Notes under the pieces: generated by a model
Seen by the model: only the letters and a program-made list of their open reading frames with translations
The model's database searches: none
Told to the model about the DNA's origin: nothing
Shown: positions 1,748 through 47,719 of the stretch, piece after piece
Layout: every line of letters begins with the position of its first letter
Position numbering within the stretch: position 1 is the first letter of the stretch
Translations under genes and position numbers: made by a program
NCBI GenBank assembly: GCA_965248195.1
Contig: CBDFIQ010000002.1
Coordinates: 256,001 to 320,000 of the forward strand
Reading direction: 5' to 3'
Length of the DNA: 64,000 bases
Origin: Longimicrobiales bacterium
GTDB taxonomy: Bacteria > Gemmatimonadota > Gemmatimonadetes > Longimicrobiales > Gaopeijiaceae

Positions 1748-3046
1748 ATGTTCGACGAACTCGGCAACAAGCTGGACAGTGTTCTGGGGAAGTTCCGGCA
1801 GCGGGGCGTCATTACGGAGCCCATGATCCGGGATGGCCTTCGTGAGGTCCGGCGGGTTCTTCTCGAGGCAGACGTCAACTATAAGGTGACGCGGCAGTTT
1901 CTCGAGCGCGTGCAGGAGCGGGCTCTCGGCGAGCAGGTCATCAAATCGGTTTCGCCGGGACAGCAGATCGTCAAGATCGTCCATGACGAGTTGGCGAGTC
2001 TGCTGGGCGAGGGACCGGCAACGCTCGAGTGGGCGTCGTCAGTGCCGACGGTGATTTTGGTCGTGGGCCTGCAGGGTTCGGGTAAGACGACCACAGTGGC
2101 GAAGTTGGCGAAGCGGTTCGCAGGTGAGGGCAGGGCGCCCTTGCTGGCCGCTTGTGACCTGTACCGCCCGGCGGCCGTCGACCAGTTGGCAACGCTCGGG
2201 GAGCAGGTCGGCGTGCCGGTTCACCGGGGCGGCTCGGGTGAAGATCCGGTCGCCGTGGCGAACGCCGCCGTGGCGATCGCACGGCGCGACGGCAGGACCG
2301 TGCTGATTGTGGATACGGCCGGTCGGCTCCAGATCGACGAGCCGATGATGGACGAGCTTCGCCGGCTCAAAGCGGATCTGGCGCCGCAGGAGATCCTGCT
2401 GGTGGCCGACGCCATGACCGGCCAAGAGGCGGTGAATATCGCGGAGGGCTTCGACCAGGCGTTGGGCCTGACCGGTGTGATCCTCACGAAGATGGACGGT
2501 GATGCCCGAGGCGGAGCGGCGCTCTCGATTCGGGGAGTGGTCGGGAAGCCGATCAAGTTCGTGGGCGTGGGCGAGACAGCAGACGATCTGGAGCTGACCG
2601 ACCCGGAGCGCATGGCGGGGCGCATCCTCAAGATGGGGGATGTGGTCGGTTTGGTGGAACGGGCAGAGCGGGCCCTGGACGCTGGAGCGCAGGTAGAGCT
2701 TCAGCAGCAGATGCTCAGGGGACGCTTTACGTTGGAAGACTTCTTGACCGCGATGCGGCAGGTCCAGAAGATGGGTCCGGTGGAGCAGTTGTTGAAGATG
2801 ATTCCGGGTGCGGCCCGGGCGATACCGGACGGGGGAATCGATCCGAAAAGGATGAAGCATGTCGAGGCGATCATCCTCTCGATGACGAAGGCTGAGCGAA
2901 TCGCGCCGGAGATCCTGGACGGATCGAGGAGAGCGCGAATCGCGAAGGGAAGTGGGCGGCCGGTTTCGGAGGTGAATCGACTGCTCAAGCAGTTCAAGGA
3001 GACGCAGAAGTTCATGAAACAGATGAAGGGCATGCTGCCCGTCTGA
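1748..3046 (+). CDS. ffh: signal recognition particle protein
   Basis: GLQGSGKTTT, DTAGR, TKMDGDARGGAALS, M-domain SRRARIAKGSG. Confidence 0.98.
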   Translation: MFDELGNKLDSVLGKFRQRGVITEPMIRDGLREVRRVLLEADVNYKVTRQFLERVQERALGEQVIKSVSPGQQIVKIVHDELASLLGEGPATLEWASSVPTVILVVGLQGSGKTTTVAKLAKRFAGEGRAPLLAACDLYRPAAVDQLATLGEQVGVPVHRGGSGEDPVAVANAAVAIARRDGRTVLIVDTAGRLQIDEPMMDELRRLKADLAPQEILLVADAMTGQEAVNIAEGFDQALGLTGVILTKMDGDARGGAALSIRGVVGKPIKFVGVGETADDLELTDPERMAGRILKMGDVVGLVERAERALDAGAQVELQQQMLRGRFTLEDFLTAMRQVQKMGPVEQLLKMIPGAARAIPDGGIDPKRMKHVEAIILSMTKAERIAPEILDGSRRARIAKGSGRPVSEVNRLLKQFKETQKFMKQMKGMLPV

Positions 3047-3101
3047 TCACGTGGAAAACCGCCGGATGGACTGGCGACAAAGGACGAACTGGAAAGCGCA
3101 T

Positions 3102-4208
3102 ATGTCCGTAAGAATTCGACTTCGCCGTATGGGCCGGAAAAAGCTGGCTCATTATCGCATCGTAGTGGCCGACTCCGCGGCACCGCGGGATGGTCGCTTC
3201 GTGGAGACTCTCGGGTATTACAAGCCCCTGACGAGCCCGGCGCGCCTTGTCGTGGACCTGGAGAAGGCCGATGAGTGGATCGGCAAGGGTGCCGAGCAGT
3301 CCGACACGATCCGCACGCTACTGAACAAGGCTCGCAAGGGCGGGGATAGCAAGGTCGCGGTTGGCGAGATCGATCCCGAGGAGGCGAAGGCCGCCAAGGC
3401 CGCCGCCGTGGAGGAACGCCGCAAGGCCGAGGCGAAAGCCCGCGAGGCGGCGGCCGCTGCAGCGGTTGCCCAGGAAGCGGCGACCGCAGCTGCGGCTGAG
3501 GTGGAGGCTGAAGAGGTTGCCGAGGCTGAGCCCGAAGCAGAGGCTGCCCAGGAGGAGCCCGCTGCGGAAGAGGAAGCTGAGCCCGAAGCAGAGGCTGCCC
3601 AGGAGGAGCCCGCTGCGGAAGAGGAAGCTGAGCCCGAAGCAGAGGCCGCCGAAGAGGAGCCCACAGCTGAAGAAGAAGCTGAGCCCGAAGCGGAGGCTGC
3701 CGAAGAGGAGCCCGCAGCGGAAGCAGAGGCTGAGCCCGGAGCGAAGCCTGCCGAGGAGGAGCCCGCAGCGGAAGAAGAAGCTGAGCCCGAAGCGGAGGCT
3801 GCCGAAGAGGAGCCCGCAGCTGAAGCAGAGGCTGAGCCCGAAGCGGAGGCTGCCGAAGAGGAGCCCGCCGCTGAAGCGGAAGCTGAGCCTGAAGCGGAGG
3901 CTGCCGAGGAGGAGCCCGCCGCTGAAGCAGAGGCTGAGCCTGAAGCGGAGGCTGCCGAGGAGGAGCCCGCAGCTGAAGCAGAGGCTGAGCCTGAAGCGGA
4001 GGCTGCCGAGGAGGAGCCCGCAGCTGAAGCAGAGGCTGAGCCCAAAGCGGAGGCTGCCAAGGAGAAGCCCGCCGCCAAAGCAGCAGCTAAGCCCAAAGCG
4101 AAGGCCGCCAAGGAGAAGCCCGCCGCCAAAGCAGCAGCTAAGCCCAAAGCGAAGGCTGCAAAAAAGAAGAAGCCCGCTGCCAAGAAAAAGGAAAAAAAGT
4201 CGAAGTAA
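3102..4208 (+). CDS. rpsP: 30S ribosomal protein S16 with a very long low-complexity C-terminal extension
   Basis: MSVRIRLRRMGRKK..YRIVVADS..PRDGRFVETLGYY; ffh-rpsP-rimM-trmD-rplS synteny; start moved to ATG 3102. Confidence 0.96.
   Translation: MSVRIRLRRMGRKKLAHYRIVVADSAAPRDGRFVETLGYYKPLTSPARLVVDLEKADEWIGKGAEQSDTIRTLLNKARKGGDSKVAVGEIDPEEAKAAKAAAVEERRKAEAKAREAAAAAAVAQEAATAAAAEVEAEEVAEAEPEAEAAQEEPAAEEEAEPEAEAAQEEPAAEEEAEPEAEAAEEEPTAEEEAEPEAEAAEEEPAAEAEAEPGAKPAEEEPAAEEEAEPEAEAAEEEPAAEAEAEPEAEAAEEEPAAEAEAEPEAEAAEEEPAAEAEAEPEAEAAEEEPAAEAEAEPEAEAAEEEPAAEAEAEPKAEAAKEKPAAKAAAKPKAKAAKEKPAAKAAAKPKAKAAKKKKPAAKKKEKKSK
3522..4184 (+). repeat. 51-bp (17-aa) coding tandem repeat, about 13 units
   Basis: EAEPEAEAAEEEPAAE[A/E] repeated at a 51-nt period; the last three units are Lys-substituted. 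Confidence 0.95.
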
Positions 4209-4226
4209 CTCCTCGCACGCACCGTC

Positions 4227-4769
4227 ATGGGTAAGACCCAAGCGCCGAAGAATTTGGTCGTGGGGCACCTCAACAAGGCCCACGGCACCAAGGGCGAGAT
4301 CTTCATCTGGCCCCTGACTGACCACCCCGAGAGCACGTTCGCTCCCGGGGTGGATCTGTACCTGGGTGACGCGAACGGCGATCTGCCGACCGACCCACTG
4401 ACGCTGCGGGTCGAGTCGAGTCGAGCGTATCGCCGTGGGTTCCTGGTTCGTTTCGCGGGGGTCCACGACCGAAGTGGAGTGGATGGCCTTCTGGACCGGT
4501 ACGTCATGCGCGCCATGGAACAGATCGAAGAGTTGGCTGAGGGTGAGACCTTCTACCACCAACTCCTGGGCATGGAGGTCGTCACCGTCGAGGGTGAGCA
4601 GGTGGGAGAGGTCGTCGAGATCTACGAGTTGAGGCCAGCGGACCTCTTGGAGATCCGGGGTCCGGAGAAGACCTTCATGATCCCGTATATCTCGGAGATG
4701 ATCCAGTCGGTGAGCGTGGCGGACAACCGGATCGTGCTCGACCCGCCTCCGGGCCTCTTGGAGGTGTAA
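4227..4769 (+). CDS. rimM: 16S rRNA processing protein RimM
   Basis: VGHLNKAHGTKGE, FYHQLLGMEVVT, MIPY..., DPPPGLLE; synteny. Confidence 0.95.
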   Translation: MGKTQAPKNLVVGHLNKAHGTKGEIFIWPLTDHPESTFAPGVDLYLGDANGDLPTDPLTLRVESSRAYRRGFLVRFAGVHDRSGVDGLLDRYVMRAMEQIEELAEGETFYHQLLGMEVVTVEGEQVGEVVEIYELRPADLLEIRGPEKTFMIPYISEMIQSVSVADNRIVLDPPPGLLEV

Positions 4770-8880: not shown

Positions 8881-8953
<73 letters not shown>

Positions 8954-8957
8954 CTGG

Positions 8958-8993
8958 GCCGGAAGTCCAGTAAATAAGCGGACTTCCGGCTTT
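8958..8993 (+). terminator. hairpin after tRNA-Lys, repeated after each att copy
   Basis: GCCGGAAGTCC..GGACTTCCGGC-TTT; variants at 13429-13465 and 19921-19958. Confidence 0.75.
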
Positions 8994-9109
8994 CGTGTGT
9001 CTGTGAGTTAGGTGCGAAAATGGGGCTTTGGTACCCCAAGTGGTACCCCAAAAACTCGGGTTACCTGGCGGGAACTCAGCGGATGGGAGGGGAACTCCGA
9101 GTGTCTGGA

Positions 9110-13395: not shown

Positions 13396-13426
13396 GGTCG
13401 TGGGTTCGAGACCCACCCGGCTCACT
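13396..13426 (+). repeat. 31-bp copy of the tRNA-Lys 3' end (internal att-like site)
   Basis: GGTCGTGGGTTCGAGACCCACCCGGCTCACT equals 8925-8955; the next ~120 bp resemble 8956-9080. Confidence 0.93.
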
Positions 13427-13548
13427 AGGCCGGGAGCCCCTAGGTAGGCGGGCTTCCGGCTTTTTGGTGTCGGTGGGGTAGGGCGAAAAATGGGGCTTTG
13501 GTACCCCAAGTGGTACCCCAAAAACTCGGGTTGCCTGGGGGAAACTCA

Positions 13549-13598: not shown

Positions 13599-13822
13599 TT
13601 TACGGCCTGTTCACAACGATCTTCTCGCACTGCCTCTCCGGCGAAGTACCGCTAAGACCTTGTAAGGCCTTCTACCCGGGTAACGAATCGGGTAACGCGT
13701 CTACCTCTACTCGTGCGCCAACGCCCGAAGCGGACCCACCTGGCTGGCATGCCTGGCAGGCGAGTAGCAAGCCACCATCGCGTCGGCGACCATCGCGACA
13801 GGAACCCCCCAGCGCGATCCAG

Positions 13823-15198
13823 GGTCAAGTCCCGATTTGTGTGTAAAAGCGGAGGAAGCTCCTCGCCTTCGGCTAGGCTGCTTGGGCGACCTCCTGTTTC
13901 TGGAGGAGTGAGAGGTCGAGGTAACGCCGGTCGCCCCAGACGTGTGTGGTCCTGAGTGCGACGGCCGTGATGAGCCTGAGGGCGCTGGCCCGGTCCGGGA
14001 AGGCGCCGGCGGCCTTGATCCTGCGTTTGATCTCGCCGTGCAGCCGCTCGAGGCTGTTGGTGGTACGCAGCCGGGGCCAGTGCGCCTCGGGGAACGCGTA
14101 GAACTGCGTCGCTGCCCCGAAGCCCCGCTCCAGGACCTCCACGGCCTCGGGCAGCTCCTTCTTCCAGCGTGCGCCGAACTCGCCCAGGAGCTTCTTCGCC
14201 TCGGCGAGTCCGGATGTCTGGAAGATCACCGAGACCTCACGCGCCACGCGCTTGCGTAGGCGGTGGGGGACCCTCGCCCCCACATTACGCTGCAGATGGA
14301 CCGTACACCTCTGACGGCGTGCCTCGGGCAGGAAGCGGCGGACCGCAGCTGCCAGGCCTGCGTGCTCATCGGCGATCACGAGCTCGACACCGCCGAGGCC
14401 GCGGTCCTGGAGTTGCTCGAGGAGCTCCGACCAGCTCTGCTGCGACTCCTCAGCGCCCAGCGTGACGGCCAGGAGCCGTCGGTGACCCTCAGGGCCCACT
14501 GCATACGCCACGAGCGCACTCACGTTCTCGACTTTGCGGGCCCAGCGGGCGTCCAAGAACGTGGCGTCCAGGTACAGATAGGGGTGAGGCCCCTCGATCG
14601 GCGCACGGCGCAGCCCTTCCACGGCCTCGTCGAGCCGTTTTGCCACACGACTCACCGTCGAGCGCCCAACACGCTCGCCCATCAGCGCCTCGGTGACGTC
14701 GCCCATCTTGCGCTGTGACACGCCGCTCACATACGCCTCGACCATCATCTCGTCGAGCTCGGGGCTCCTGCGCTGGTAGCGGCCGATCACGTCGGCCGGC
14801 GAACCGTTGTCCCGGCTCCGGGGCATGGCGACCTCGATCTGCCCCAGGCTCGTCAGCAGCCGCCTCAGGTATGTGCCGTTCCTATGGTCCTTCCGGCTTC
14901 CCACCCGCTCGAAGCGGCGTGCACCTACCATGGCCTTCAGCTCCTCTTCCAGCACCATCTCGAGCGTCAGCCGGATCGCGCCTTGAAACAGCTCGCGCAA
15001 ATCATCGCGTAGCTCGTCTTGCGTGGCCCGACCGATCTCCACAATCTCTTGCATCGGAAGCTCCTCTCCGGTTCCGAGCCTGCTCTGCAGACCCGGACTC
15101 CCGGGTTCATGTGACAGTGAACAACAACAGAGGAGCTTCCGTTTTTCTTTCCCTCCTGTCCAGCTTATCCGCTTTTACACAAATCTAGGGACACTACC
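13823..15198 (-). mobile_element. IS256-family element, copy 1 (1376 bp)
   Basis: Ends GGTCAAGTCCCGATTTGTGTGTAAAAGCGG and CCGCTTTTACACAAATCTAGGGACACTACC; 9-bp TSD GCGATCCAG (13814-13822, 15199-15207). Confidence 0.97.
13873..15054 (-). CDS. IS256/Mutator-family transposase
   Basis: RNG.Y.R.L, YLYLDA, IADEH.GL, QRCTVH, RTTNSLERL.GEIKRR. Confidence 0.96.
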   Translation of the reverse strand: MQEIVEIGRATQDELRDDLRELFQGAIRLTLEMVLEEELKAMVGARRFERVGSRKDHRNGTYLRRLLTSLGQIEVAMPRSRDNGSPADVIGRYQRRSPELDEMMVEAYVSGVSQRKMGDVTEALMGERVGRSTVSRVAKRLDEAVEGLRRAPIEGPHPYLYLDATFLDARWARKVENVSALVAYAVGPEGHRRLLAVTLGAEESQQSWSELLEQLQDRGLGGVELVIADEHAGLAAAVRRFLPEARRQRCTVHLQRNVGARVPHRLRKRVAREVSVIFQTSGLAEAKKLLGEFGARWKKELPEAVEVLERGFGAATQFYAFPEAHWPRLRTTNSLERLHGEIKRRIKAAGAFPDRASALRLITAVALRTTHVWGDRRYLDLSLLQKQEVAQAA

Positions 15199-15354
15199 GC
15201 GATCCAGGGATCAAGGGCCTCCATTCCATAGAGGAGCCCTTCCAGCACCCCCATCAGGGGAAGCGAGACGCCGCACGGGTGTGTGACAACCGCATTGGCA
15301 CGCTGGATGACGAGCAGTGGGTGCCGCTTCTCCGAGATATGGAGCGGGGATTCG

Positions 15355-19871: not shown

Positions 19872-19917
19872 CGGACTTTTAATCCGTAGGTCGTGGGTTC
19901 GAGACCCACCCGGCTCA
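19872..19917 (+). repeat. attR: 46-bp copy of the tRNA-Lys 3' part
   Basis: CGGACTTTTAATCCGTAGGTCGTGGGTTCGAGACCCACCCGGCTCA identical to 8908-8953. Confidence 0.95.
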
Positions 19918-20112
19918 TTGGCCGGAAGTCCAGTAGGTAGGCGGGCTTCCGGCTTTTTGGTGGCACGCCAGGCATGGCGCGACCCGCCGAAAGGCGGGAA
20001 GTAACCGTGTTGTTGGCGGCCACCCAATATTTCCCATATGTTGGAGTGAACCCTACAAAGTGGACACAGAGGGGGCGATGGATTGACCTTCCGTAATCAC
20101 TCGGGAGGTTCG

Positions 20113-20475
20113 ATGACGGTTCGACGACACACGAGGTACAGCACGGAGTTCAAGATCCAGCTGGTCCAGGCGTACTTGGATGGAGAAGGCAGTGCGAGGG
20201 CGATCGCTACTCGACACAGTGTACCTCACTCCCTACTCATGATCTGGGTCAAGAAGTACGGGGAAGGCGAACTTACGGAGGAGATCCACCTGCAGGAGCA
20301 AGTTGTCGAGGACCAGGCCAAGATCGCGGCACTCGAGCGCAAGATTGGTCAGTTGACGATGGAACTCGACGCCATGAAAAAAAGGGCTCTGATACAGCCG
20401 TCACAGAAAAGCGCGCGGCCGTCGATCATCTCCGGGCCAGGGGTGTCCCTGTCCGACGGGGATGCAGCCTCATGA
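20113..20475 (+). CDS. IS3 OrfA
   Basis: RYSTEFKIQLV..LERKIGQLTME; GGGAGG RBS. Confidence 0.9.
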   Translation: MTVRRHTRYSTEFKIQLVQAYLDGEGSARAIATRHSVPHSLLMIWVKKYGEGELTEEIHLQEQVVEDQAKIAALERKIGQLTMELDAMKKRALIQPSQKSARPSIISGPGVSLSDGDAAS

Positions 20476-21266
20476 ACATCCCGAGGAGTACCTTCTACAA
20501 GCGACCGGATGCGGCCTGCGAGACCGCTCGGGAGAGAGCGGACGGGGACCTGCGCGTGCGGATCGAAGACATTCTCGCCGAGTTCCCCGCCTACGGATAT
20601 CGCCGGGTCACGCACGAACTCGGGAGACGCGGCCTGGTGGTCAATCACAAGCGAGTCTCTAGGATTATGCGTGAACACGCGCTTACGCCCCACCGCGTAC
20701 GCGCATGGCTTGCTACGACGAACAGCAATCACAAGCAGCGCATCTACCCGAACCTGAGGTCGTCGATCACGCCCGAGGGGCCTGACGAGCTCTGGGTGGC
20801 CGATCTGACGTACATCCGGCTCACGACCGGCTTTGTTTTCCTAGCCGTCGTGCTCGACGTGTGGTCGCGGCGTGTCATTGGCTACGCCATCAGCCATCTC
20901 CTGGACGTGCGTCTTTGCCTGGCCGCACTCGATGCCGCACTCGAACTTCGGCAGCCGCGGTCTGGCCTCATCCACCACTCCGATCGCGGCGTCCAGTATG
21001 CATCCCAATTGTACCGTTCACGTCTCGCCGAACACGGTGTCCGAGGATCGATGTCCCGGCGGGGCAACCCGTACGACAACGCCCATGTTGAGAGCTTTTT
21101 CAAAACCCTGAAGCACGAGGAGATCTTGGCAAACGACTACAGCACAATTGATGACGTAGCCAACCGACTCCCCCACTTCCTTGAGGAGGTGTACAATCGA
21201 AGACGCTTGCACTCCTCGCTCGGTTACATGCCACCTGAGGAATTCGAGAGCATTCATGCAGCTTGA
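20472..21266 (+). CDS. IS3 OrfB transposase, probably expressed as OrfAB by -1 frameshift
   Basis: YGYRRV, WVADLTYI, HHSDRGVQY, GNPYDNAHVESFFKTLK, YN.RRLHSSLGY. Confidence 0.94.
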   Translation: MNIPRSTFYKRPDAACETARERADGDLRVRIEDILAEFPAYGYRRVTHELGRRGLVVNHKRVSRIMREHALTPHRVRAWLATTNSNHKQRIYPNLRSSITPEGPDELWVADLTYIRLTTGFVFLAVVLDVWSRRVIGYAISHLLDVRLCLAALDAALELRQPRSGLIHHSDRGVQYASQLYRSRLAEHGVRGSMSRRGNPYDNAHVESFFKTLKHEEILANDYSTIDDVANRLPHFLEEVYNRRRLHSSLGYMPPEEFESIHAA

Positions 21267-21367
21267 AGCCACTGACTGGTCAATCCAACCAACTCTCGTT
21301 GTCCACCCTCAGGGGTTCACTCCATGTGGCCATCGAAAATTGCACACTTGGCGGAGGTGACGAGCCT

Positions 21368-22210
21368 CTAGTTCGTCGTTTTCTCCTTTGCTCTTGCTCT
21401 CTTTCTCTTCGGGGGTGAAGGGCTCGACTCCGCAGGAGGCGAGTGGAGGATCTTGGAGAGGTCGGTGTGCTTGCGCATCCGGTAGCTGCTGCCGCGGATG
21501 TTGACGATATGGCAGTGATGCAGCAGGCGATCGATGAGCGCAGCGGCCATGACCTCGTCGCCCAAGATGTGGCCCCACTCCTCGAAGCCTTTGTTGGAGG
21601 TCAGCACAGTGGATGCGCGCTCATAGCGCCGGTTGATGAGTTGGAAGAAGAGCATGGCGCCGGTCTGGCTGACCGGCAGGTAGCCGATCTCGTCGATGAC
21701 CAGGAGCGAAGGATAGGTGAGGATCTTGAGGCGGCGTCCCAGCTGGCCGGTGGTCTTGGCTTCTTCGAGCGAGGTGATGAGGTCGGCCAGAGCGCCGTAG
21801 TAGACTCTGCGCCCGCTCTGAGCCGCGGCAATGGCGAGGCTGATCGCGAGATGCGTCTTGCCGACGCCCGGAGGGCCGAGGAAGATCACGTTCTCCTTAC
21901 GCTCCAAGAAGCCGAGCTCGTGCAGCGAGTCGATCTGCTCGCGCTTGATCGAGGGCTGGAAGCTGAAGTCGAAGTCGTCGAGGGTCTTGATGCCCGGTAG
22001 CCGGCTCGAGCGCATCGCAGCCTGAAGGCGGCGGTTGTTGCGCAGCGTGATCTGGGCACCGAGGAGTTGCTCGATGGCCTCCGAGGCCGTCACGCCTCCG
22101 CCATCGACCCCGGTGAGGACGTCGTCGATGGCCTCCAGCGCACCGGGCATCTTGAGATCGGCGAGCTGGGCTCGGATCCGGTCACGGCGAGAGCGAGCGG
22201 CAGCCTTCAT
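21368..22210 (-). CDS. istB: IS21 helper ATPase IstB
   Basis: FDFSFQP, GPPGVGKTHLA, LLVIDEIGY, TSN, DRLLHH, G.SYR. Confidence 0.96.
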   Translation of the reverse strand: MKAAARSRRDRIRAQLADLKMPGALEAIDDVLTGVDGGGVTASEAIEQLLGAQITLRNNRRLQAAMRSSRLPGIKTLDDFDFSFQPSIKREQIDSLHELGFLERKENVIFLGPPGVGKTHLAISLAIAAAQSGRRVYYGALADLITSLEEAKTTGQLGRRLKILTYPSLLVIDEIGYLPVSQTGAMLFFQLINRRYERASTVLTSNKGFEEWGHILGDEVMAAALIDRLLHHCHIVNIRGSSYRMRKHTDLSKILHSPPAESSPSPPKRKRARAKEKTTN

Positions 22211-23236
22211 CGGTCCCCTCCCGCGATCTGGGCATAGGCCGTGAGGGGACGTCGCTCGACGTGGATGGCCGGCAAGGACGTCGTGCCGGGTGAGGAGCGA
22301 TCCGGAGGCAGGACGAGGGGGTGATACGGGCGAGTCGCCAAGGGCTCGAGGAGCAGTCGTTCACGCTCGAAGCGATCGAGGGGCCGCTCCTTCAGCGTTG
22401 CGTGGCTGCGCACATTGGCTTCCGTCTCAAGCCAATGAAGGGCCTGCGCGTTGAGATCGTCGTCCGACGTGAAGGTGCGCCCGTAGAAGAAGCTCTCCCT
22501 GAGGTAGCGGATCGGCCGCTCCACCTTGCCCTTGCTCTGAGCCCGATAGGGTCGGCACGCTCGGATCCTGAAGTTCCAGTGGTAGGCGTAGCGCATGAAC
22601 TCCGGGTTCTCGACGAGGGCACCATCGTCGTATCGACCGTCCTCGATGACGACCGCCTTCATTGGGTCGAACAGAAGCTCACGGGGCACGCCGCCGAAGT
22701 AGGAAAACGAAGACTCCAGGCCATGCATCAGGGCCTTCATGGTCTGCCGGGTGTAGAACTGAACCCACAGCAGCCTCGAGTAGCCCAGCACGACGATTAG
22801 TGCGTAACGCTTGCCCCACGGTAGCCGGAAGTGGGCGAAGTCCACCTGGCCCTGACGCCCAGGCGCCGTCTCGAAGCGCACGACCGGCTCCTCTGGGGGT
22901 CGAGGCCGGACCTTGCGTACATAGCGCTTCACTTTGGTTGTAACTGCCCGGGTAGCCAGCGGCCCGGACCTCCTTGAAGAGCCGTACAGCCGTGAGCTTC
23001 GGGTACTCCTTGAGACGCGTGTCGATCAACGGCTTGTACGGATCCAGCTTCGACGGCATCAGACATCTCGGACCGTACCCGACACGCTCTTCGTCCAACT
23101 CCCGGTCCAGTTGACCGGTCTCTATCCAGTGGTACACGGTACGGCGACTGACCCCCAGATCCCGGGCGATCACCGCCTTGTTCATCCCCTGCTCGAGGTA
23201 ATGACGGAGCAGCACGCGCTTCTCCCTTCCGATCAT
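22207..23236 (-). pseudogene. istA: IS21 transposase IstA, frameshifted near 22935
   Basis: HTH N-terminus (IARDLGVSRRTV, SKLDPYK) and catalytic part (RFETAPG.QGQVDF, R.QSKGKVER) lie in different frames. Confidence 0.9.
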
Positions 23237-23367
23237 TGCACCTCCACGTTCGCGGTGGAGGCGCCAAGTGAATGGATCGGCCGGAAGATCGCTCGGGGTG
23301 GTGCCTACATCCCCACTCTCCCGCCCGCTAGGTCAAAGCGCCAAGTGTGCAATTTTCGATGGCCACA

Positions 23368-26220
23368 TGGAGTGAACCCCTGAGGGTGGACAACGAGAGT
23401 TGGTTGGATTGACCAGTCAGTGGCTTCAAGCTGCATGAATGCTCTCGAATTCCTCAGGTGGCATGTAACCGAGCGAGGAGTGCAAGCGTCTTCGATTGTA
23501 CACCTCCTCAAGGAAGTGGGGGAGTCGGTTGGCTACGCGGAACCTGTCAACGACAATGGGACACTCTACGGGATTAATTAGAGAGCAATATCCTGTGTGG
23601 TGAGGGAAGGGATGGGAGGATTGATGTAGACGGCCTCCGGGAGCGGTTTGGGCTTCGGCACACCTGTGACGAAGCGTTCGGGATGAGCGGCCCATGCTTC
23701 GCGGAGCACGGATTTCCTGCCGGCAATGACCTGATCGGCGTTCCCGAAGTGGACCTGCTCGGGGGTTAGCATCGAGATACCGCCATGGCGGTGCTCGGCA
23801 TTGTACCAGCGGAAGAACGATCGACACAACGTCTTGGCCTGGCCCTGATCCCCGAACCGCCCGGGAAACGAGGGATGGTACTTCAAGGTTTTGAACTGAG
23901 CCTCGGAAAACGGGTTGTCATCCGACACCTGAGGCCGGCTCAACGAGCGAGTCACGCCGAGGTCAGCGAGAAGTTGAGCGGTGCATTGGCTCGTCATTGG
24001 AGCTCCCCGATCCGAGTGCAGGGTCAGGACCCGGGGCTGGACGCCATGCTTCAGGCAGCTCTGCTGGATCAACCGGCCGGCCAGGGCCGAGTTCTCCCGG
24101 TCCGCCACCATCCAGCCCACGACGTAGCGGCTGTAGATGTCCATGATGACGTAGAGGTAGTAATAGCTCCACTTCTTCGGCCCGAGTAGCCGCGTGATAT
24201 CCCAGGACCACACCTGGTTCGGCGCCGTGGCCATCAACTCGGGCTTCTTGTACTCGGGATGGGTGCGCTGCGCCCGGCGTTCCTGAACCGGCACCTCGGA
24301 GGCCAGAACACGATACATCGTGCGTTCGCTGCACAGGTAGACCTCTTCGTCGAGCAGCGTGGCCACCACCTCGGCGGGTGAGCGGTCCACGAACCGCTCC
24401 GAACACAGCGTGTCGAAGACCTCGCCTCGTTCCGTCTCGCTCAATGCCCGGGCGGGCGTCGGGCGGGGCTGCCGTTGCCCGGTCGATGGGCCTCGACGAC
24501 GGTAGAACGTCGATCGGGAGACCTCGAGAGCCGCGCACGCCGGTTTTACACCGACGTGCTTAGCCAGCTCATCGGCCGCCTTCAAGAGTTCGTCCCGTCG
24601 TCGAGGCTTATCCCCAGCAGCCCCGCAACTTTTCCCTGCACGTCGATGATCAGGTGTGCCTTCCTGAGCTCATTCTCGAGCCGTGCGTTTTGCCGCTCCA
24701 GCTTGCGTACCTTCTCATCCAGCGGATTCCGCTCCGGCTTGCGGCCGCGTTTCTTCGACAGGGCCTTCAGCGACCCGCTATGCGCCGCCTTGCGCCACGT
24801 CGTCAGGTGCGACGAGTACAGGCCCTCGCGCCGCAGGAGCTGACCCACCTCGCCGGGCTCGGTGCACCGGTCCGCTTCTTCGACGATCCGCAGCTTGTAC
24901 GATGGACTGAACCGCCGGCGTAGCGGCCTATCTACTACCTCCGGGTCCGCAGGAGCTGCCGCGCTTCGCTTGGCCTCCCCGATTCCAGGGGCACTACCAT
25001 TCTCTTCCATTCTCTCTCGCAGTCCCAACATGTTCGTTTTCTCTGCCTTCGCCCTACTCTAATTCTTTGCGTGCTCCGTGTCTCACGTACGTTGGCAGAG
25101 AGGGACGTCATCAATTGTGCTGTAGTCGTTTGCCAAGATCTCCTCGTGCTTCAGGGTTTTGAAAAAGCTCTCAACATGGGCGTTGTCGTACGGGTTGCCC
25201 CGCCGGGACATCGATCCTCGGACACCGTGTTCGGCGAGACGTGAACGGTACAATTGGGATGCATACTGGACGCCGCGATCGGAGTGGTGGATGAGGCCAG
25301 ACCGCGGCTGCCGAAGTTCGAGTGCGGCATCGACTGCGGCCAGGCAAAGACGCACGTCCAGGAGATGGCTGATGGCGTAGCCAATGACACGCCGCGACCA
25401 CACGTCGAGCACGACGGCTAGGAAAACAAAGCCGGTCGTGAGCCGGATGTACGTCAGATCGGCCACCCAGAGCTCGTCAGGCCCCTCGGGCGTGATCGAC
25501 GACCTCAGGTTCGGGTAGATGCGCTGCTTGTGATTGCTGTTCGTCGTAGCAAGCCATGCGCGTACGCGGTGGGGCGTAAGCGCGTGTTCACGCATAATCC
25601 TAGAGACTCGCTTGTGATTGACCACCAGGCCGCGTCTCCCGAGTTCGTGCGTGACCCGGCGATATCCGTAGGCGGGGAACTCGGCGAGAATGTCTTCGAT
25701 CCGCACGCGCAGGTCCCCGTCCGCTCTCTCCCGAGCGGTCTCGCAGGCCGCATCCGGTCGCTTGTAGAAGGTACTCCTCGGGATGTTCATGAGGCTGCAT
25801 CCCCGTCGGACAGGGACACCCCTGGCCCGGAGATGATCGACGGCCGCGCGCTTTTCTGTGACGGCTGTATCAGAGCCCTTTTTTTCATGGCGTCGAGTTC
25901 CATCGTCAACTGACCAATCTTGCGCTCGAGTGCCGCGATCTTGGCCTGGTCCTCGACAACTTGCTCCTGCAGGTGGATCTCCTCCGTAAGTTCGCCTTCC
26001 CCGTACTTCTTGACCCAGATCATGAGTAGGGAGTGAGGTACACTGTGTCGAGTAGCGATCGCCCTCGCACTGCCTTCTCCATCCAAGTACGCCTGGACCA
26101 GCTGGATCTTGAACTCCGTGCTGTACCTCGTGTGTCGTCGAACCGTCATCGAACCTCCCGAGTGATTACGGAAGGTCAATCCATCGCCCCCTCTGTGTCC
26201 ACTTTGTAGGGTTCACTCCA
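23368..26220 (-). mobile_element. IS3-family element, copy B (inverted), orfB disrupted by a nested IS
   Basis: Same IRs and ORFs as copy A (orfA 25787-26149); 3-bp TSD ACA; at least one substitution (LAALD vs LAAVD). Confidence 0.95.
23538..25104 (-). mobile_element. IS3-family-like element, copy 2, nested in IS3 copy B
   Basis: Same ORFs as 11799-13365 (orfB 23578-24585, orfA 24582-25010); AC(G) target duplication deduced from intact copy A. Confidence 0.95.
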
Positions 26221-26319
26221 ACATGTGTGCAATATTGGAAGGCCGCTAACACCCGGCCACGACCTCCGTCCTGGCGTAGGGCGGGGAAGGACCTTTAACC
26301 GAGGGGAATTGAGCGCGGA

Positions 26320-40770: not shown

Positions 40771-41062
40771 TCAGCCGTAGGTCTTCCGCAGTTCCACTTT
40801 CTGCACCTTACCCGTGCCACCGATCGGCAACTCCTCGACCATGACTACGTCATCCGGAATCCACCATTCTTCAACCTTGCCCTTGAAGAATCCGAGCAAC
40901 TCCTCTTTGGAGGGTTCCGCCCCCGGGTTCGGCCTCACGATGAGGAGCGGGCGCTCGCTCCATTTTTCATCGGGAATTCCGATCACCGCCGCCTGCATTA
41001 CGTCAGGATGACTCATTGCCAAGTGCTCGAGCTCGATCGAACTGATCCACTCCCCTCCTGAC
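40771..41062 (-). pseudogene. 3' fragment of a fatty-acid--CoA ligase, truncated by IS256
   Basis: SGGEWISSIELE..HPDV.QAAVIG.PDEKW.ERP..TGKVQK; begins at the IS end. Confidence 0.88.
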
Positions 41063-42438
41063 GGTCAAGTCCCGATTTGTGTGTAAAAGCGGAGGAAGCT
41101 CCTCGCCTTCGGCTAGGCTGCTTGGGCGACCTCCTGTTTCTGGAGGAGTGAGAGGTCGAGGTAACGCCGGTCGCCCCAGACGTGTGTGGTCCTGAGTGCG
41201 ACGGCCGTGATGAGCCTGAGGGCGCTGGCCCGGTCCGGGAAGGCGCCGGCGGCCTTGATCCTGCGTTTGATCTCGCCGTGCAGCCGCTCGAGGCTGTTGG
41301 TGGTACGCAGCCGGGGCCAGTGCGCCTCGGGGAACGCGTAGAACTGCGTCGCTGCCCCGAAGCCCCGCTCCAGGACCTCCACGGCCTCGGGCAGCTCCTT
41401 CTTCCAGCGTGCGCCGAACTCGCCCAGGAGCTTCTTCGCCTCGGCGAGTCCGGATGTCTGGAAGATCACCGAGACCTCACGCGCCACGCGCTTGCGTAGG
41501 CGGTGGGGGACCCTCGCCCCCACATTACGCTGCAGATGGACCGTACACCTCTGACGGCGTGCCTCGGGCAGGAAGCGGCGGACCGCAGCTGCCAGGCCTG
41601 CGTGCTCATCGGCGATCACGAGCTCGACACCGCCGAGGCCGCGGTCCTGGAGTTGCTCGAGGAGCTCCGACCAGCTCTGCTGCGACTCCTCAGCGCCCAG
41701 CGTGACGGCCAGGAGCCGTCGGTGACCCTCAGGGCCCACTGCATACGCCACGAGCGCACTCACGTTCTCGACTTTGCGGGCCCAGCGGGCGTCCAAGAAC
41801 GTGGCGTCCAGGTACAGATAGGGGTGAGGCCCCTCGATCGGCGCACGGCGCAGCCCTTCCACGGCCTCGTCGAGCCGTTTTGCCACACGACTCACCGTCG
41901 AGCGCCCAACACGCTCGCCCATCAGCGCCTCGGTGACGTCGCCCATCTTGCGCTGTGACACGCCGCTCACATACGCCTCGACCATCATCTCGTCGAGCTC
42001 GGGGCTCCTGCGCTGGTAGCGGCCGATCACGTCGGCCGGCGAACCGTTGTCCCGGCTCCGGGGCATGGCGACCTCGATCTGCCCCAGGCTCGTCAGCAGC
42101 CGCCTCAGGTATGTGCCGTTCCTATGGTCCTTCCGGCTTCCCACCCGCTCGAAGCGGCGTGCACCTACCATGGCCTTCAGCTCCTCTTCCAGCACCATCT
42201 CGAGCGTCAGCCGGATCGCGCCTTGAAACAGCTCGCGCAAATCATCGCGTAGCTCGTCTTGCGTGGCCCGACCGATCTCCACAATCTCTTGCATCGGAAG
42301 CTCCTCTCCGGTTCCGAGCCTGCTCTGCAGACCCGGACTCCCGGGTTCATGTGACAGTGAACAACAACAGAGGAGCTTCCGTTTTTCTTTCCCTCCTGTC
42401 CAGCTTATCCGCTTTTACACAAATCTAGGGACACTACC
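41063..42438 (-). mobile_element. IS256-family element, copy 2 (transposase 41113-42294)
   Basis: Same ends and protein as copy 1; flanks CCTCCTGAC and GGTGGCGTC are not duplicated. Confidence 0.97.
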
Positions 42439-43947
42439 GGTGGCGTCGACACGATGGTCGATTCGGGCATCACCGTAGACTCGTGGTTTGATCGTGGCGA
42501 GAAAACTCATCTGAGTTCGTCGCAGCTAAACCCGAACAGTCAGTTTTCTCAGTACGACAGTGTGGCAACGAACGAGACCCGCTTGATGCCCGGTGCCACA
42601 ATCGATCTCGATCCTGACGTGACGATGGCTGTTGTTGCGTCGAACGGTCACGTGCGAGGGGCCGTGGGGCACTACGAGGTCGATGGACCCAGTCACAATG
42701 AGAACTTCTACTCTATCGCGCTTCTGATCAGCTACGAGGGGTTCAACTACTTCGTGGGTGGTGACCTTACCTCTGACATAGAAGAGCGGATCGTCGAGCA
42801 GGCAGCCCTCGGCGACATTGATGTCTACAAGGTGAGCCACCACGGGTCGGCCACTTCTTCGACAGCGGCGTTGCTAGAGTTGATCCGACCGGAGGTAGCC
42901 ATCATCTCGAACGGCTCGGAGAGCTGCTTCAATCATCCGAGGCAGTCGGTCCTAGACACCCTTGGTGCGATTCCGGGCATCGTGATCTTTCAAACGAACC
43001 GGCTCAAGGATGAACACCTCGACCAGTGCCAGAGCGGGGCCATCGTCAGCGGGAATGTGGCCGACGCGAATATTGCTGATCCTGAGACCGACGAGGTTGA
43101 TGGTCACGTCACGATAGTGGTGAGCGACGGGAACTACGTTGTGAGCTTGCCTGCAAGGGGAACGTCGCGGACTTTTTCGATCAACGGCACCCTCCCGACT
43201 GGACGGGTTCCCGAAAACGCCTGCGACGCCGATGCGAGACTGGAGCCGGTCAGGGCATTGGAGTGCCACTTCGCCAGGAATCTCCTGAGGCGTTTTCCTT
43301 TTCACGGTCGGTTTGGTCCTCAAACGAGGGACGCTGCCCCTGACGATGTACGCCAGCTCCTAACGCTACTGGATCGAGTTGAACCTGATGTGGCGCTGCC
43401 GACAACCTCCGGCCTTACCGAGGCGCTCTATCGGGCCAAGCCAGCACTAGAGACCCTTCTCGGAGATGAGCGCTCGCGGTTAACCTTCCGGATCACCGAA
43501 AGTCGTCACGCAACCGAAATCGCGGAATGGTCGGTGGTCAGCGGATGGAATGGCTCAAGTTCGAGCGAACGCCGCTTGCTCGAAACCGTCTGGCGGGTGG
43601 GAGACCGCTTAACGGTAAGCCTCACCCTCGCGCACTCCTCTCGATTCCGATTCCTGCCAAGGGAGGAGGGCCTTTCAATGGTCGATGGAGAAGGCCGAGT
43701 ATTGTCGTTCGAGTTCCTTGGCGCCTGGGGTTTGTGGCGTCTACTCGACCGACATGGCTTGAGCGACGAGCCGTCAAGTAACAGCACGGTGACGGTGCGT
43801 CTTGATTTCGACTTGGTGGATTTGTCTGAAGTCGAACCGGGCGTATCGGAGGCGTCCTGGGTCGTCCTTGAAGTGGAGGTGCTTGGTGCCGGTGGCGGCC
43901 AGGCGTTCGACCTGCGCCTGCCGTCCGCTGTGGGATGGAGCCGATAG
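42439..43947 (+). pseudogene. 5'-truncated ComEC/MBL-fold hydrolase fused to a possible IcmF/TssM-C-like domain
   Basis: NEN.YSIALL, GGDL, KVSHHGS.TSS, PEVAIIS.G, HP; HxHxDH region missing; C-part has RRFPF and GAWGLWRLLD. Confidence 0.65.
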
Positions 43948-44526: not shown

Positions 44527-44958
44527 TAGAAGTTCCGGAAAACCGCTTCCTTCCTAGCGGCCTGCAAGCGGGATATGGCGCGCCTCGAGCGAGCCTACCG
44601 GACGCTGTTCGAGGAGTGGAAACGCAGAGAAGCGAACTCGACAGGCAATAGCGGCCCGTGAAGCATGTCGGGGAGCGAAGCGCACGAGCCCGATGGCTAC
44701 CGCGACAGGCGAGGAGCCGAGCGGGAAACGCCGGATCGAGGACAAGACCAAACTCAAGAGTAGCTCTGATTCTGCCTCTGACGGGCTTCTGCTTGCGCCT
44801 ACCGGCCCTCTTTCGGATGTTGAACGCGGATCTGATCCCGGAGTGCGCCTATGTCCGATGCAGTCGCTTGTCTGTGGTGGTTCAGACGGGGTAGCCTAAC
44901 CGGGGGACACATGTTAAACTCGGAATGTAAATGCTAGGCAGAGACTGTTCGCCACGCC

Positions 44959-46334
44959 GGTCAAGTCCCGATTTGTGTGTAAAAGCGGAGGAAGCTCCTC
45001 GCCTTCGGCTAGGCTGCTTGGGCGACCTCCTGTTTCTGGAGGAGTGAGAGGTCGAGGTAACGCCGGTCGCCCCAGACGTGTGTGGTCCTGAGTGCGACGG
45101 CCGTGATGAGCCTGAGGGCGCTGGCCCGGTCCGGGAAGGCGCCGGCGGCCTTGATCCTGCGTTTGATCTCGCCGTGCAGCCGCTCGAGGCTGTTGGTGGT
45201 ACGCAGCCGGGGCCAGTGCGCCTCGGGGAACGCGTAGAACTGCGTCGCTGCCCCGAAGCCCCGCTCCAGGACCTCCACGGCCTCGGGCAGCTCCTTCTTC
45301 CAGCGTGCGCCGAACTCGCCCAGGAGCTTCTTCGCCTCGGCGAGTCCGGATGTCTGGAAGATCACCGAGACCTCACGCGCCACGCGCTTGCGTAGGCGGT
45401 GGGGGACCCTCGCCCCCACATTACGCTGCAGATGGACCGTACACCTCTGACGGCGTGCCTCGGGCAGGAAGCGGCGGACCGCAGCTGCCAGGCCTGCGTG
45501 CTCATCGGCGATCACGAGCTCGACACCGCCGAGGCCGCGGTCCTGGAGTTGCTCGAGGAGCTCCGACCAGCTCTGCTGCGACTCCTCAGCGCCCAGCGTG
45601 ACGGCCAGGAGCCGTCGGTGACCCTCAGGGCCCACTGCATACGCCACGAGCGCACTCACGTTCTCGACTTTGCGGGCCCAGCGGGCGTCCAAGAACGTGG
45701 CGTCCAGGTACAGATAGGGGTGAGGCCCCTCGATCGGCGCACGGCGCAGCCCTTCCACGGCCTCGTCGAGCCGTTTTGCCACACGACTCACCGTCGAGCG
45801 CCCAACACGCTCGCCCATCAGCGCCTCGGTGACGTCGCCCATCTTGCGCTGTGACACGCCGCTCACATACGCCTCGACCATCATCTCGTCGAGCTCGGGG
45901 CTCCTGCGCTGGTAGCGGCCGATCACGTCGGCCGGCGAACCGTTGTCCCGGCTCCGGGGCATGGCGACCTCGATCTGCCCCAGGCTCGTCAGCAGCCGCC
46001 TCAGGTATGTGCCGTTCCTATGGTCCTTCCGGCTTCCCACCCGCTCGAAGCGGCGTGCACCTACCATGGCCTTCAGCTCCTCTTCCAGCACCATCTCGAG
46101 CGTCAGCCGGATCGCGCCTTGAAACAGCTCGCGCAAATCATCGCGTAGCTCGTCTTGCGTGGCCCGACCGATCTCCACAATCTCTTGCATCGGAAGCTCC
46201 TCTCCGGTTCCGAGCCTGCTCTGCAGACCCGGACTCCCGGGTTCATGTGACAGTGAACAACAACAGAGGAGCTTCCGTTTTTCTTTCCCTCCTGTCCGGC
46301 TTATCCGCTTTTACACAAATCTAGGGACACTACC
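44959..46334 (-). mobile_element. IS256-family element, copy 3 (transposase 45009-46190)
   Basis: Same protein; one substitution noticed at 46298; flanks CGCCACGCC and CTAATGTAC are not duplicated. Confidence 0.97.
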
Positions 46335-47719
46335 CTAATGTACTCGTTGGCGGCGTGGGCGACCGCGTCCCGGCGTGCCGGCGAAACGACACCGGCGCAG
46401 GGAATGCCCTCCTTGACGAGGTAGTGGGTGTCGGTGGTCCCAATGGCGAAGTTGGCTGGCTCCACGTCGCCGAAGTCGGGGGGCCTTCCGGCCAGCGCCT
46501 CGTAGGCCGACGCGGTCGCTTTGACCACCGGCCAGTCGAAGTCCACCCGGTAGCCTGGCCTCCGGTCTATCTCCCCGATTGTCGCTCTGAAGTCGTTGTC
46601 CTGGGCCGCGAGCCGGTCGAGGATCACCTGTATATCCCTCCAGACGTCGTCGGGGTCGTGGTCCGGCACCAGCCGGGTGTCGAGGAACACCCGACAGAAC
46701 GCCGGCTTTTGGGAGGTCTGGGTCGTGGGCCACCCGCCCTTGACCTGGAGCACCTGATAGAAGGAGGGCCCGTAATACCGGCTCGGGGGATGGTTCGGCG
46801 CCGCCTCGGCGATGGCGGCGATGAACTTGCTGGCTTTGTGGATGGCGTTGACCCCCACGCCGGGCCGGGGAGAGCTCCCTGCGTGGGCGTTCGTGCCATA
46901 GAAGGTGATCATCGCCGACGTCCGCCCGGGCACCGTCGCGCGGATCCGCGAGCCCGTCCCCGCGCCCTCGGAGAAGGCGCCCGAGACCTCCTTGTGAAGA
47001 CCGGACTTGATGAACTGCTTGATGCCCAGCATGTAGCCCTCTTCGTCGGCCACCAGCCCGATCAGCAGGTCGCCGGGCAGCTCCACCCCCGCCTCCTTGA
47101 TGGCTTTCGCGGCCATGATCTTGGCCACGCAGCCTGACTTGTTGTCGGAGGCCCCAAGCCCATAGACGCGGCCGTCCCGGATCTCACCCGCGAAGGGATC
47201 CACAAACCAATCGTCCTCGTTGGCCGTGTCGTCGAGGTGGATGCTGTCCAGGTGGGACGTGACCATCAGGGTCGGCCCCTTCGGCGTCCGCCCCGGGAGC
47301 CTGGCGACCAGGTTGGACCGGCCCGGGTGGCCCTCGATTCCCTGGATCATCGCGTCGTCGATCCCCCACTCGCGCAACCTGCCGGCGAAGTACTCGGCTC
47401 CCGCCTGCTCGTTGGACATGGCCGTCGGGATGCGCACGAAGTCCTGGAGGACGGAAACCACCTCGTCCTCCCTGATCAGGTCGAGAACCTCCTGTTCCTC
47501 TGGGGTCAACTGGGCGGGGGGAACTTGTCGAGGGCGCGAGCCGGAGGTCGCGGCAGCCGGCTCATCGGAGATGTTTCCGTCCGGGGAAGTCCGGGGACCG
47601 GCGACAAGTCCGGCGGTCATGAACGACCCGCCGATGACCGACGCTCCTTTGAGGAAATCCCTTCGATCCAAGCCCTCGGTGCTTTGCCCGGTATTGGGAT
47701 TCGCAGTGGAAGTATCCAT
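46335..47719 (-). pseudogene. Tat-exported M20 (ArgE/DapE-like) hydrolase, 3'-truncated by IS256
   Basis: RRDFLK; SHLD, GLGASDNK, ADEE, AHAANEYI then IS sequence. Confidence 0.85.

Follow-up and report, generated by a model that had tools for sequence, protein, structure and literature searches.

Organization of the locus

The window, a 64,000-nucleotide stretch of a Longimicrobiales genome, contains an element of the IS21 family, identified by istA and istB (NF033546 and NF038214, both above cut-off), each end of which is interrupted by a copy of the same IS3-family element (Table 1). Assignment of the latter to the IS3 family follows from the combination of an orfA with a helix-turn-helix domain, an orfB with a DDE (rve) core in the -1 frame and TG...CA ends, and OrfB scores 283 bits against the NCBIfam IS3 transposase model NF033516 (cut-off, 160). 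Members of this family are typically 1.2-1.55 kb long and generate duplications of 3-4 bp. Compared with named subgroups, the element shows 35-43% identity to IS3, IS150, IS600 and IS1133, and the database records of its clade are unnamed. The terminal inverted repeats of copy 1 extend over 47 nt with 74% identity, and a slippery A7G run starts at 20377 within orfA, from which point the -1 frame is open into orfB.

Table 1. The interrupted IS21 element and the IS3 elements inserted into it (positions in the window)
Feature	Position	Strand	Remark
IS21-type tip (TGT and first repeat) with 3-bp duplication TGT	20011..20041	+	native tip in 7 relatives differs
Targeting IS3 copy 1, intact, 1283 bp, ends TGGAGTG...CACTCCA	20042..21324	+	
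orfA of IS3 copy 1, HTH_Tnp_1, leucine-zipper-like region	20113..20475	+	
orfB of IS3 copy 1, HTH_21 and rve DDE core	20472..21266	+	
Duplication TGT and inner (second) repeat of the istB-side IS21 end	21325..21353	+	native to the window IS21
istB, intact AAA+ helper	21368..22210	-	
istA, split by a one-base frameshift near 22933	22207..23236	-	
Inner (second) repeat of the istA-side IS21 end and duplication	23339..23367	-	
Targeting IS3 copy 2, left end at 26220, orfB interrupted	23368..26220	-	
Unrelated 1567-bp IS3-family element nested in copy 2, 3-bp duplication ACG	23538..25104	-	
Duplication and native istA-side tip of the window IS21	26221..26251	-	empty allele at C1:1480045

A preliminary description of this locus held that the IS3 copies start 31 bp inside both IS21 ends, in mirror orientation, each between the first and second repeat of its end, and this geometry is confirmed. 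Copy 1 starts at 20042, immediately behind the 31 bases that begin with the TGT at 20011, and is flanked by TGT at 20039-20041 and 21325-21327, whereas the left end of copy 2, at 26220, lies 31 bases from 26251, with ACA at 23365-23367 and 26221-26223. The two copies, described as near-identical, indeed differ by one substitution, but copy 2 is not contiguous: it runs from 26220 to 23368 and is split by the nested 1567-bp element, so that IS21 sequence makes up only some 2.1 of the 6.2 kb. The nested element, of which the genome contains 49 full copies at scattered targets, serves as an in-genome control. TG...CA ends with two direct repeats each are found in the empty allele on contig C1 and at the native right ends of relatives, in line with the two-repeat architecture of IS21 ends outlined in the available text of PMC10122671.

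The outer 28-bp segments of the IS21 differ from each other, as had been noted. The extent originally given to the IS21, 20011-26251, is correct with respect to the native istA-side tip (26221-26251) but not to the other extremity. The tip at 20011-20038 is carried by none of seven relatives with 96-99% identical interiors and is not the native istB-side tip; it was probably brought in through recombination between IS3 copies. The same comparison with relatives places the native istB-side tip at two further copies of the IS3 in this genome (copies 3 and 4), which rules out that the tip there is the left end of a second IS21. We also rejected the idea that the opposite end had served as template for the inner repeat at 21325-21353, given that this repeat is native in the 96-99% identical relatives, the outer tip being the foreign part. 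No direct repeat was found outside 20011 and 26251 that could represent a duplication flanking the entire IS21. The proposed IS3-bounded composite transposon carrying istAB is not supported, as it gives no indication of having moved: the unit occurs once in the genome, each IS3 has its own duplication with none around the unit, and both outer ends are left ends.

The frameshift in istA, already recognized in the preliminary description, is shared by the partial copy on C1, the contig with the empty allele, and is absent in four public runs. Because it is present in both genomic copies, we rejected an assembly slip and take it as real; the genome, which is 91.8% complete, yielded no intact istA. 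The suggestion that the IS3 insertion disabled the IS21 is reasonable, since two complete repeats are required according to PMC10122671, but the sequences indicate that istA was most likely frameshifted before the IS3 arrived. The empty istA-side end is observed both on C1 and as a joint between 23364 and 26221 in three of the four public runs, which come from different studies. No public contig spans the whole 6.2 kb and, consequently, the complete arrangement is documented in this assembly only.

Targeting of IS21 ends by a clade of IS3 elements

All four genomic copies of the 1283-bp IS3 start 31 bp inside an IS21 tip, behind three different tips, which, together with the observation of an empty end, argues against chance; targeting is also seen in congeners. 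The preliminary description had named such placement of other copies as support for targeting. The transposases involved form a well-supported clade (FastTree support 0.98), in which a TGT tip lies exactly 31 bp out at 41 of 92 insertions, compared with 2 of 152 in relatives outside the clade (Fisher p = 2e-18, an overstated significance because kin are not independent). The count of 92 was obtained from 94 by leaving out L364 and L391, for which the wrong element end had been taken; eleven miscalled flanks (in the motif test) and matches with less than 43% identity or fewer than 120 residues were left out as well. TGT occurs at offset 31 in 46 of 168 clade flanks and at any other offset in at most 9. 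The 41 insertions cover 21 tip classes (below 80% identity) and 28 OrfB clusters (below 90%), and istA or istB is present at 14 of 35 offset-31 clade loci versus 1 of 84 non-clade loci.

The landing site is the junction of two IstA-binding repeats, and the same junction geometry is found in closed plasmids and in dozens of genomes. Neither orientation prevails at targeted ends (18 left-end, 17 right-end, 6 both), and one and the same tip sequence has received the IS3 in both directions; of the 72 clade elements having both ends, only 33 retain the duplication. A phylum-wide search around a deltaproteobacterial member added two matches, both at contig edges and without usable flanks; a pattern scan of viral contigs gave 7 matches, all attributable to chance; and none of four IS3-like loci, three of them from E. 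coli, Klebsiella or Shigella, was in an IS21 end. Among the 46 plasmid records with a match to a clade OrfB at E<=1e-70, none comes from Escherichia. Our search, which covered papers rather than the ISfinder and TnCentral pages, found no description of such targeting. That an IS3 lineage targets IS21 ends, and does so generally, is strongly supported. The earlier notion of a hyperparasite is supported as regards the targeting of IS21 ends, but these elements are not strict IS21 specialists, as they also use an end of another IS3 and motif sites outside insertion sequences.

The target motif and a natural target switch

Insertion is two-ended, occurs in either orientation with a 3-bp duplication, and takes place at the center of a quasi-symmetric site of about 45 bp, in which both half-sites carry, at 24 to 10 bases from the junction, a G/C block followed by an A/T tract. 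An IS21 repeat consists of a G/C block, an A/T spacer and a second G/C block and is itself close to a palindrome; the place where two such repeats abut, 29-31 bp from the tip, is therefore the natural sequence that most often matches the site. We trained a matrix on IS21-end targets only, and high scores of IS21 ends are accordingly built in; nevertheless, 61 other clade flanks score -1.5 compared with -9.3 for 244 non-clade flanks, a signal that appears in register only and was reached in none of 5000 shuffles. For two congener insertions that lack the 31-bp tip and were held out of training, the in-register scores are 9.9 and 11.3, against a background with a mean of -20.9 and an SD of 8.3, and the motif is also found in register at sites inside coding sequence. 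When the source genome was left out of training, the two window targets ranked 6th and 86th of 4,861,381 positions. The matrix is incomplete: 85 empty positions outscore the left window target, and the empty allele on C1 (rank 6) is unfilled. No clade-specific DNA-binding or extra domain was found in the transposases, only scattered residue differences.

A different choice of target is seen in genome G895, where a clade member fills 9 of 13 left ends of an IS407-like IS3, at base 40 or 41, and base 41 is the matrix peak in the empty IS3 ends. The 18 flanks of this genome outside IS21 and IS3 ends score -1.2, whereas the value is -10.7 in 98 flanks that belong to the nested control IS. G895 carries more than 30 intact istA copies, and none of the 35 right ends of its abundant IS21 with intact istA is filled, even though these ends, at 8.9, score above one filled site (6.8, in G374). 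The 35 near-identical IS21 copies may simply be recent.

How the target might be chosen

We consider it probable that these are ordinary two-ended insertions aimed by direct reading of the symmetric motif, 10-24 bp on each side, through DNA sequence or intrinsic shape. Elements of the clade, about 1.25-1.28 kb long, would produce OrfAB by -1 frameshifting; as in other IS3-family members, this protein would circularize the element and insert the joined ends, and the helix-turn-helix domains of OrfA and OrfAB would be the likely readers of the two half-sites. Other matches to the motif, such as the left end of the IS407-like IS3 and scattered sites, are used as well. The IstA tetramer could not be accommodated by a split IS21 end, and subsequent recombination or deletion events involving pairs of IS3 copies would exchange tips and eliminate the IS21 interior. 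A broader version, tentative and in our estimate doubtful, is that the transposase is a two-sided long-range reader of the generic architecture of transposase-binding repeats, making the clade a parasite of mobile-element ends in general, able to change victims among IS21 ends, the IS407-like IS3 end and, possibly, Tn7-like ends and integrase arm sites.

Alternatively, the transposase could capture DNA bent or exposed by a bound protein, such as the IstA-bent repeat junction and similar repeats elsewhere, the motif being only a footprint. According to the available portion of PMC10122671, IstA introduces a bend of about 70 degrees into each end, sharpest near the R1-R2 junction, which is the landing spot; moreover, the offsets follow the repeats when their spacing changes (41 in L012, 32-37 in L142), other targets of the clade include the IS3 end and arrays resembling integrase arm sites, and the frameshifted IstA of the window retains its N-terminal helix-turn-helix region. 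Several of the target sites outside insertion sequences are part of repeat arrays or other mobile DNA, where proteins probably bind, so that some help from proteins is possible. However, the IS21 right ends of G895 are unfilled despite its intact istA copies, the only istA found in the source genome is frameshifted, including that next to the empty end on C1, and the motif appears in register inside coding sequence. On balance, protein capture appears rather unlikely.

Very unlikely, in our view, is near-random insertion, with IS21 ends as harmless places of survival and spread by hitch-hiking on, or recombination with, a small number of founder events. Copies 3 and 4 have the same tip, and the far side of both has been lost; tips are also swapped in the window and in G1107, so that copy counts overstate the number of events. 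Survival, however, cannot yield single-base precision across so many tip classes and transposase clusters; a given tip sequence carries both orientations, and nothing similar is seen for the nested IS or the 152 non-clade relatives. We regard as highly improbable that an IS21 repeat is mistaken for the element's own inverted repeat, as in targeted insertion by IS911 and IS30. The IS3 end filled in G895 is struck beside its internal inverted-repeat motif, and there is a weak excess of identity in two registers (0.33-0.34 versus 0.24-0.27). The resemblance between the two repeats claimed in the preliminary description nonetheless failed, as no register exceeds about 0.34 identity and the abutting, IS911-type register reaches 0.26 against 0.22 in controls; in addition, non-targeting relatives have similar inverted repeats. 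The IS911/IS30 pathway, as summarized in the available text of PMC9333248, creates a new IR-IR junction in strict orientation, whereas here we see a duplication, no abutted ends and no orientation bias. Finally, an assembly artefact behind the mirror arrangement is scarcely credible: the lack of a spanning public contig, the foreign left tip and the missing duplication around the IS21 would fit it, but the copies differ by one substitution and by a nested IS with its own duplication, and the same geometry recurs in closed plasmids and many other genomes.

Comparison with known systems

Elements of the IS110 family rely on RNA guidance and produce no duplication; no guide is implied for the targeting IS3. 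Two of them, IS4321 and IS5075 (IS1111 group), likewise insert at a fixed base inside the terminal repeat of another element (PMC9330008, available part), but they employ another enzyme class and their victim is Tn21, whereas the targeting IS3 has a DDE enzyme, makes a 3-bp duplication and attacks IS21. IS1397, ISKpn1 and ISPsy8 are IS3-family elements with sequence-specific insertion into a symmetric repeat; the transposase is reported to set the choice, explicitly for IS1397 and ISKpn1 in the accessible text of PMC1525189. These elements target REP, in contrast to the IS21 or IS3 ends and scattered motif sites used here, with information 10-24 bp out on both sides. IS911 and IS30 share with the targeting IS3 copy-out/paste-in transposition and insertion at transposon ends (PMC9333248, in the part available), but they abut their own repeats, whereas the targeting IS3 lands between foreign ones.

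Significance

The present analysis defines a cross-phylum clade of IS3 elements with a base-precise preference for the ends of another IS family. IS3-family elements are mostly regarded as weak in target preference, the REP-targeting members being the exception. As the clade offers a testable target motif and a natural switch of target, and has a sister group that does not target, the choice of target by an IS3 transposase becomes directly testable, and the combination of a compact DDE transposase and a long symmetric target might be developed into a site-preferring insertion tool. The finding also explains confusing annotations, such as IS3 elements wrapped in 31-bp "inverted repeats" and IS21 remnants with swapped tips. 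If the clade is indeed a general parasite of mobile-element ends, this would represent element-on-element control of IS21 copy number.

Insertions in the two ends of the IS21

All features tested place the targeting element (1283 bp) in the IS3 family. Its OrfA has an HTH_Tnp_1 domain, its OrfB has an rve domain and matches the NCBIfam IS3 model at 283 bits, and an A7G run opens into the -1 frame. Both junctions in the window agree with the preliminary description: the first copy starts after base 31 of the TGT-tipped IS21 end, with TGT on either side, and the left end of the second lies 31 bases from the opposite terminus, with ACA on either side; istB and a frameshifted istA are located between the copies. 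The second copy has the end originally assigned to it but is not continuous: a further member of the IS3 family, 1567 bp long, interrupts it. The interrupting element has 49 full genomic copies, of which 40 are flanked by a 3-bp duplication. This nested element ends 7 bp beyond its TG...CA repeats, which is unusual for IS3, and its 3-bp duplication flanks two non-complementary 7-mers.

The local history is more complex than two hits on a single IS21: the tip at 20011 is foreign. In seven relatives with a 96-99% identical IS21 interior, the inner repeat on the istB side is unchanged whereas the tip differs, and none of the seven carries the tip at 20011. The native istB-side tip is the one preceding the other two genomic copies of the IS3, both of which have lost the far side, and we infer that tips were swapped via recombination between IS3 copies. 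A comparable mixed element is present in a congener (G1107); no flanking duplication was found around the window's IS21. The four genomic copies lie behind three different tips, implying at least three targeted events. The istA frameshift is common to the empty istA-side allele on contig C1 of the same genome and, thus, most likely preceded the insertion; no intact istA was found in the 91.8% complete assembly. The IS21 begins ~50 bp past the third copy of the 3' part of tRNA-Lys, and these three copies suggest stacked islands. The 1.38-kb element with three identical copies in the window is abundant genome-wide.

Coordinates of the features in the window and in two plasmid loci of relatives
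Feature	Sequence	Position	Strand
Tandem array of 51-bp units	window	3357-4217	
tRNA-Lys gene	window	8881-8954	
3' part of tRNA-Lys, three copies	window	8925-8998, 13396-13469, 19889-19962	
1.38-kb element, 33-bp inverted repeats	window	13821-15199, 41062-42440, 44957-46336	
IS21	window	20011-26251	
Targeting IS3, copy 1	window	20042-21324	+
Targeting IS3, copy 2 (interrupted)	window	23368-26220	-
Nested 1567-bp element	window	23538-25104	
Clade IS3, L017	Sphingobium plasmid	3030-4380	
Inverted clade copies, L323	Variovorax plasmid NZ_LR594693.1	9376-16158	

Target preference across the IS3 clade

Relatives were gathered by protein similarity only, after which ends were called and a tree was built. 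One clade (support 0.98), comprising 72 of the 226 unique proteins, includes the window's element; other members come from Alphaproteobacteria, Betaproteobacteria and one genome carrying the label Deltaproteobacteria. Of the 168 clade flanks, 46 have TGT at a distance of precisely 31 bases, and no other offset accounts for more than 9; the non-clade figure at 31 is 2 of 243. This test undercounts ends of other spacing (32, 37, 41) or with non-TGT tips and may include a few chance matches. Per insertion, the counts were 41/92 and 2/152, respectively, and 41/71 for the clade when one relative's genome, G895, was left out. The tips of these 41 insertions fall into 21 classes, and their OrfB proteins into 28 clusters. 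Either istA or istB was present in 14 of the 35 TGT-at-31 clade loci; elsewhere in the clade the figure was 7 of 45 loci, and outside it 1 of 84. The clade is uncommon, found in 6/301 and 7/401 genomes of two alphaproteobacterial samples; the plasmid sample comprised 19 of the 46-60 matches listed, with additional regions from 10 of them. No Escherichia plasmid is among the 46 listed records that match a clade OrfB at E<=1e-70.

Six clade elements carry tips at both flanks, as loss of the IS21 interior would be expected to produce. In L286, L312, L314, L321, L331 and L334, the IS3 lies between two IS21 tips without istAB, mimicking 31-bp inverted repeats. In L323, two inverted clade copies surround an IS21 (ISPpn1) and a third IS3; one of the two copies is at base 41 of the ISPpn1 end, and its partner occupies a separate motif site.

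Target motif and target switch

According to PMC10122671, IstA binds two repeats per IS21 end, both required for integration, and each repeat consists of two G/C blocks flanking ~10 A/T-rich bases; the IS3 insertion site is the junction of these repeats. Insertion orientation shows no bias (18 left-end, 17 right-end, 6 both), and opposite orientations occur within the same tip, suggesting that the target is symmetric. In the direction of the junction, a G/C block gives way to an A/T tract over positions -24 to -10 in both outer and inner flanks. A matrix trained on IS21-end targets alone scored the 61 other clade flanks, part of which are probably unrecognised IS21 ends, at -1.5 and the 244 non-clade flanks at -9.3, a separation seen only in register (0/5000 shuffles). 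With the window's genome left out of training, the window targets ranked 6th and 86th among 4.86 million positions; two IS21 ends that are not filled came 13,304th and 34,854th at base 31. Two congener insertions found later, neither of them behind a tip, scored 9.9 and 11.3.

In G895, another IS3 (L411-L423) has 13 left ends, 9 of which are occupied by the clade member. These insertions lie at base 40 or 41 and in either orientation, between the victim's inverted repeat and the orfA start; on the four empty left ends, the matrix maximum is at base 41. The victim has an IS407-like OrfA start. The clade member also occupies one end of another IS21 but is absent from all 35 right ends of an IS21 that is abundant and has its istA intact. 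Its flanks outside IS21 and IS3 ends (n=18), several of them within repeat arrays or mobile DNA of other kinds, scored -1.2, compared to -10.7 for the nested control element. In L017, a clade member flanked by short repeats, with a high motif score, immediately precedes an operon for a Mu-like transposase, TniB and TniQ, possibly at a Tn7-like end. Among non-clade relatives, flanks in L021, L176, L182, L201, L165, L166 and L197 resemble REP-type repeats or integrase arm-type sites in tandem; distinct targets may exist for sister subclades.

Possible mechanisms

The clade transposase would read the symmetric target DNA directly, setting insertion at the repeat junction, and we consider this rather probable. 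Against it, many positions that outscore the targets, as well as the C1 allele, stand empty, and the 35 unfilled G895 ends, which may just be recent, score higher (8.9) than a filled site in another relative, G374 (6.8). Furthermore, the truncated IstA retains its HTH region, and no special domain was found to distinguish the clade transposases. Capture of protein-bent DNA is possible, if doubtful; IstA bends the IS21 end, most strongly near the repeat junction (PMC10122671). Survival of insertions combined with hitch-hiking appears improbable. Still less probable is mimicry of the element's own repeat, hinted at by the previously noted resemblance between the IS3 and IS21 repeats, which did not hold up (abutting-register identity of 0.26 vs 0.22 for controls); that pathway yields oriented IR-IR junctions (PMC9333248). 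An assembly artefact behind the mirror arrangement is exceedingly improbable. No contig in four public runs spans the whole 6.2-kb arrangement; the empty istA-side end on C1 recurs as a joint in three of them.

Comparison with known elements

The window's element acts in the manner of IS1397 and ISKpn1, which are sequence-specific IS3 elements (PMC1525189), but appears to fall outside their group. IS4321 and IS5075, cited in PMC9330008, occupy the same niche but belong to a different group. Full-text searches, which covered neither subscription papers nor ISfinder, turned up no account of an IS3 directed at the ends of IS21. The targeting itself is nearly certain. The target preference is real, base-precise and clade-wide, and it comes with a motif open to testing and a natural change of target.
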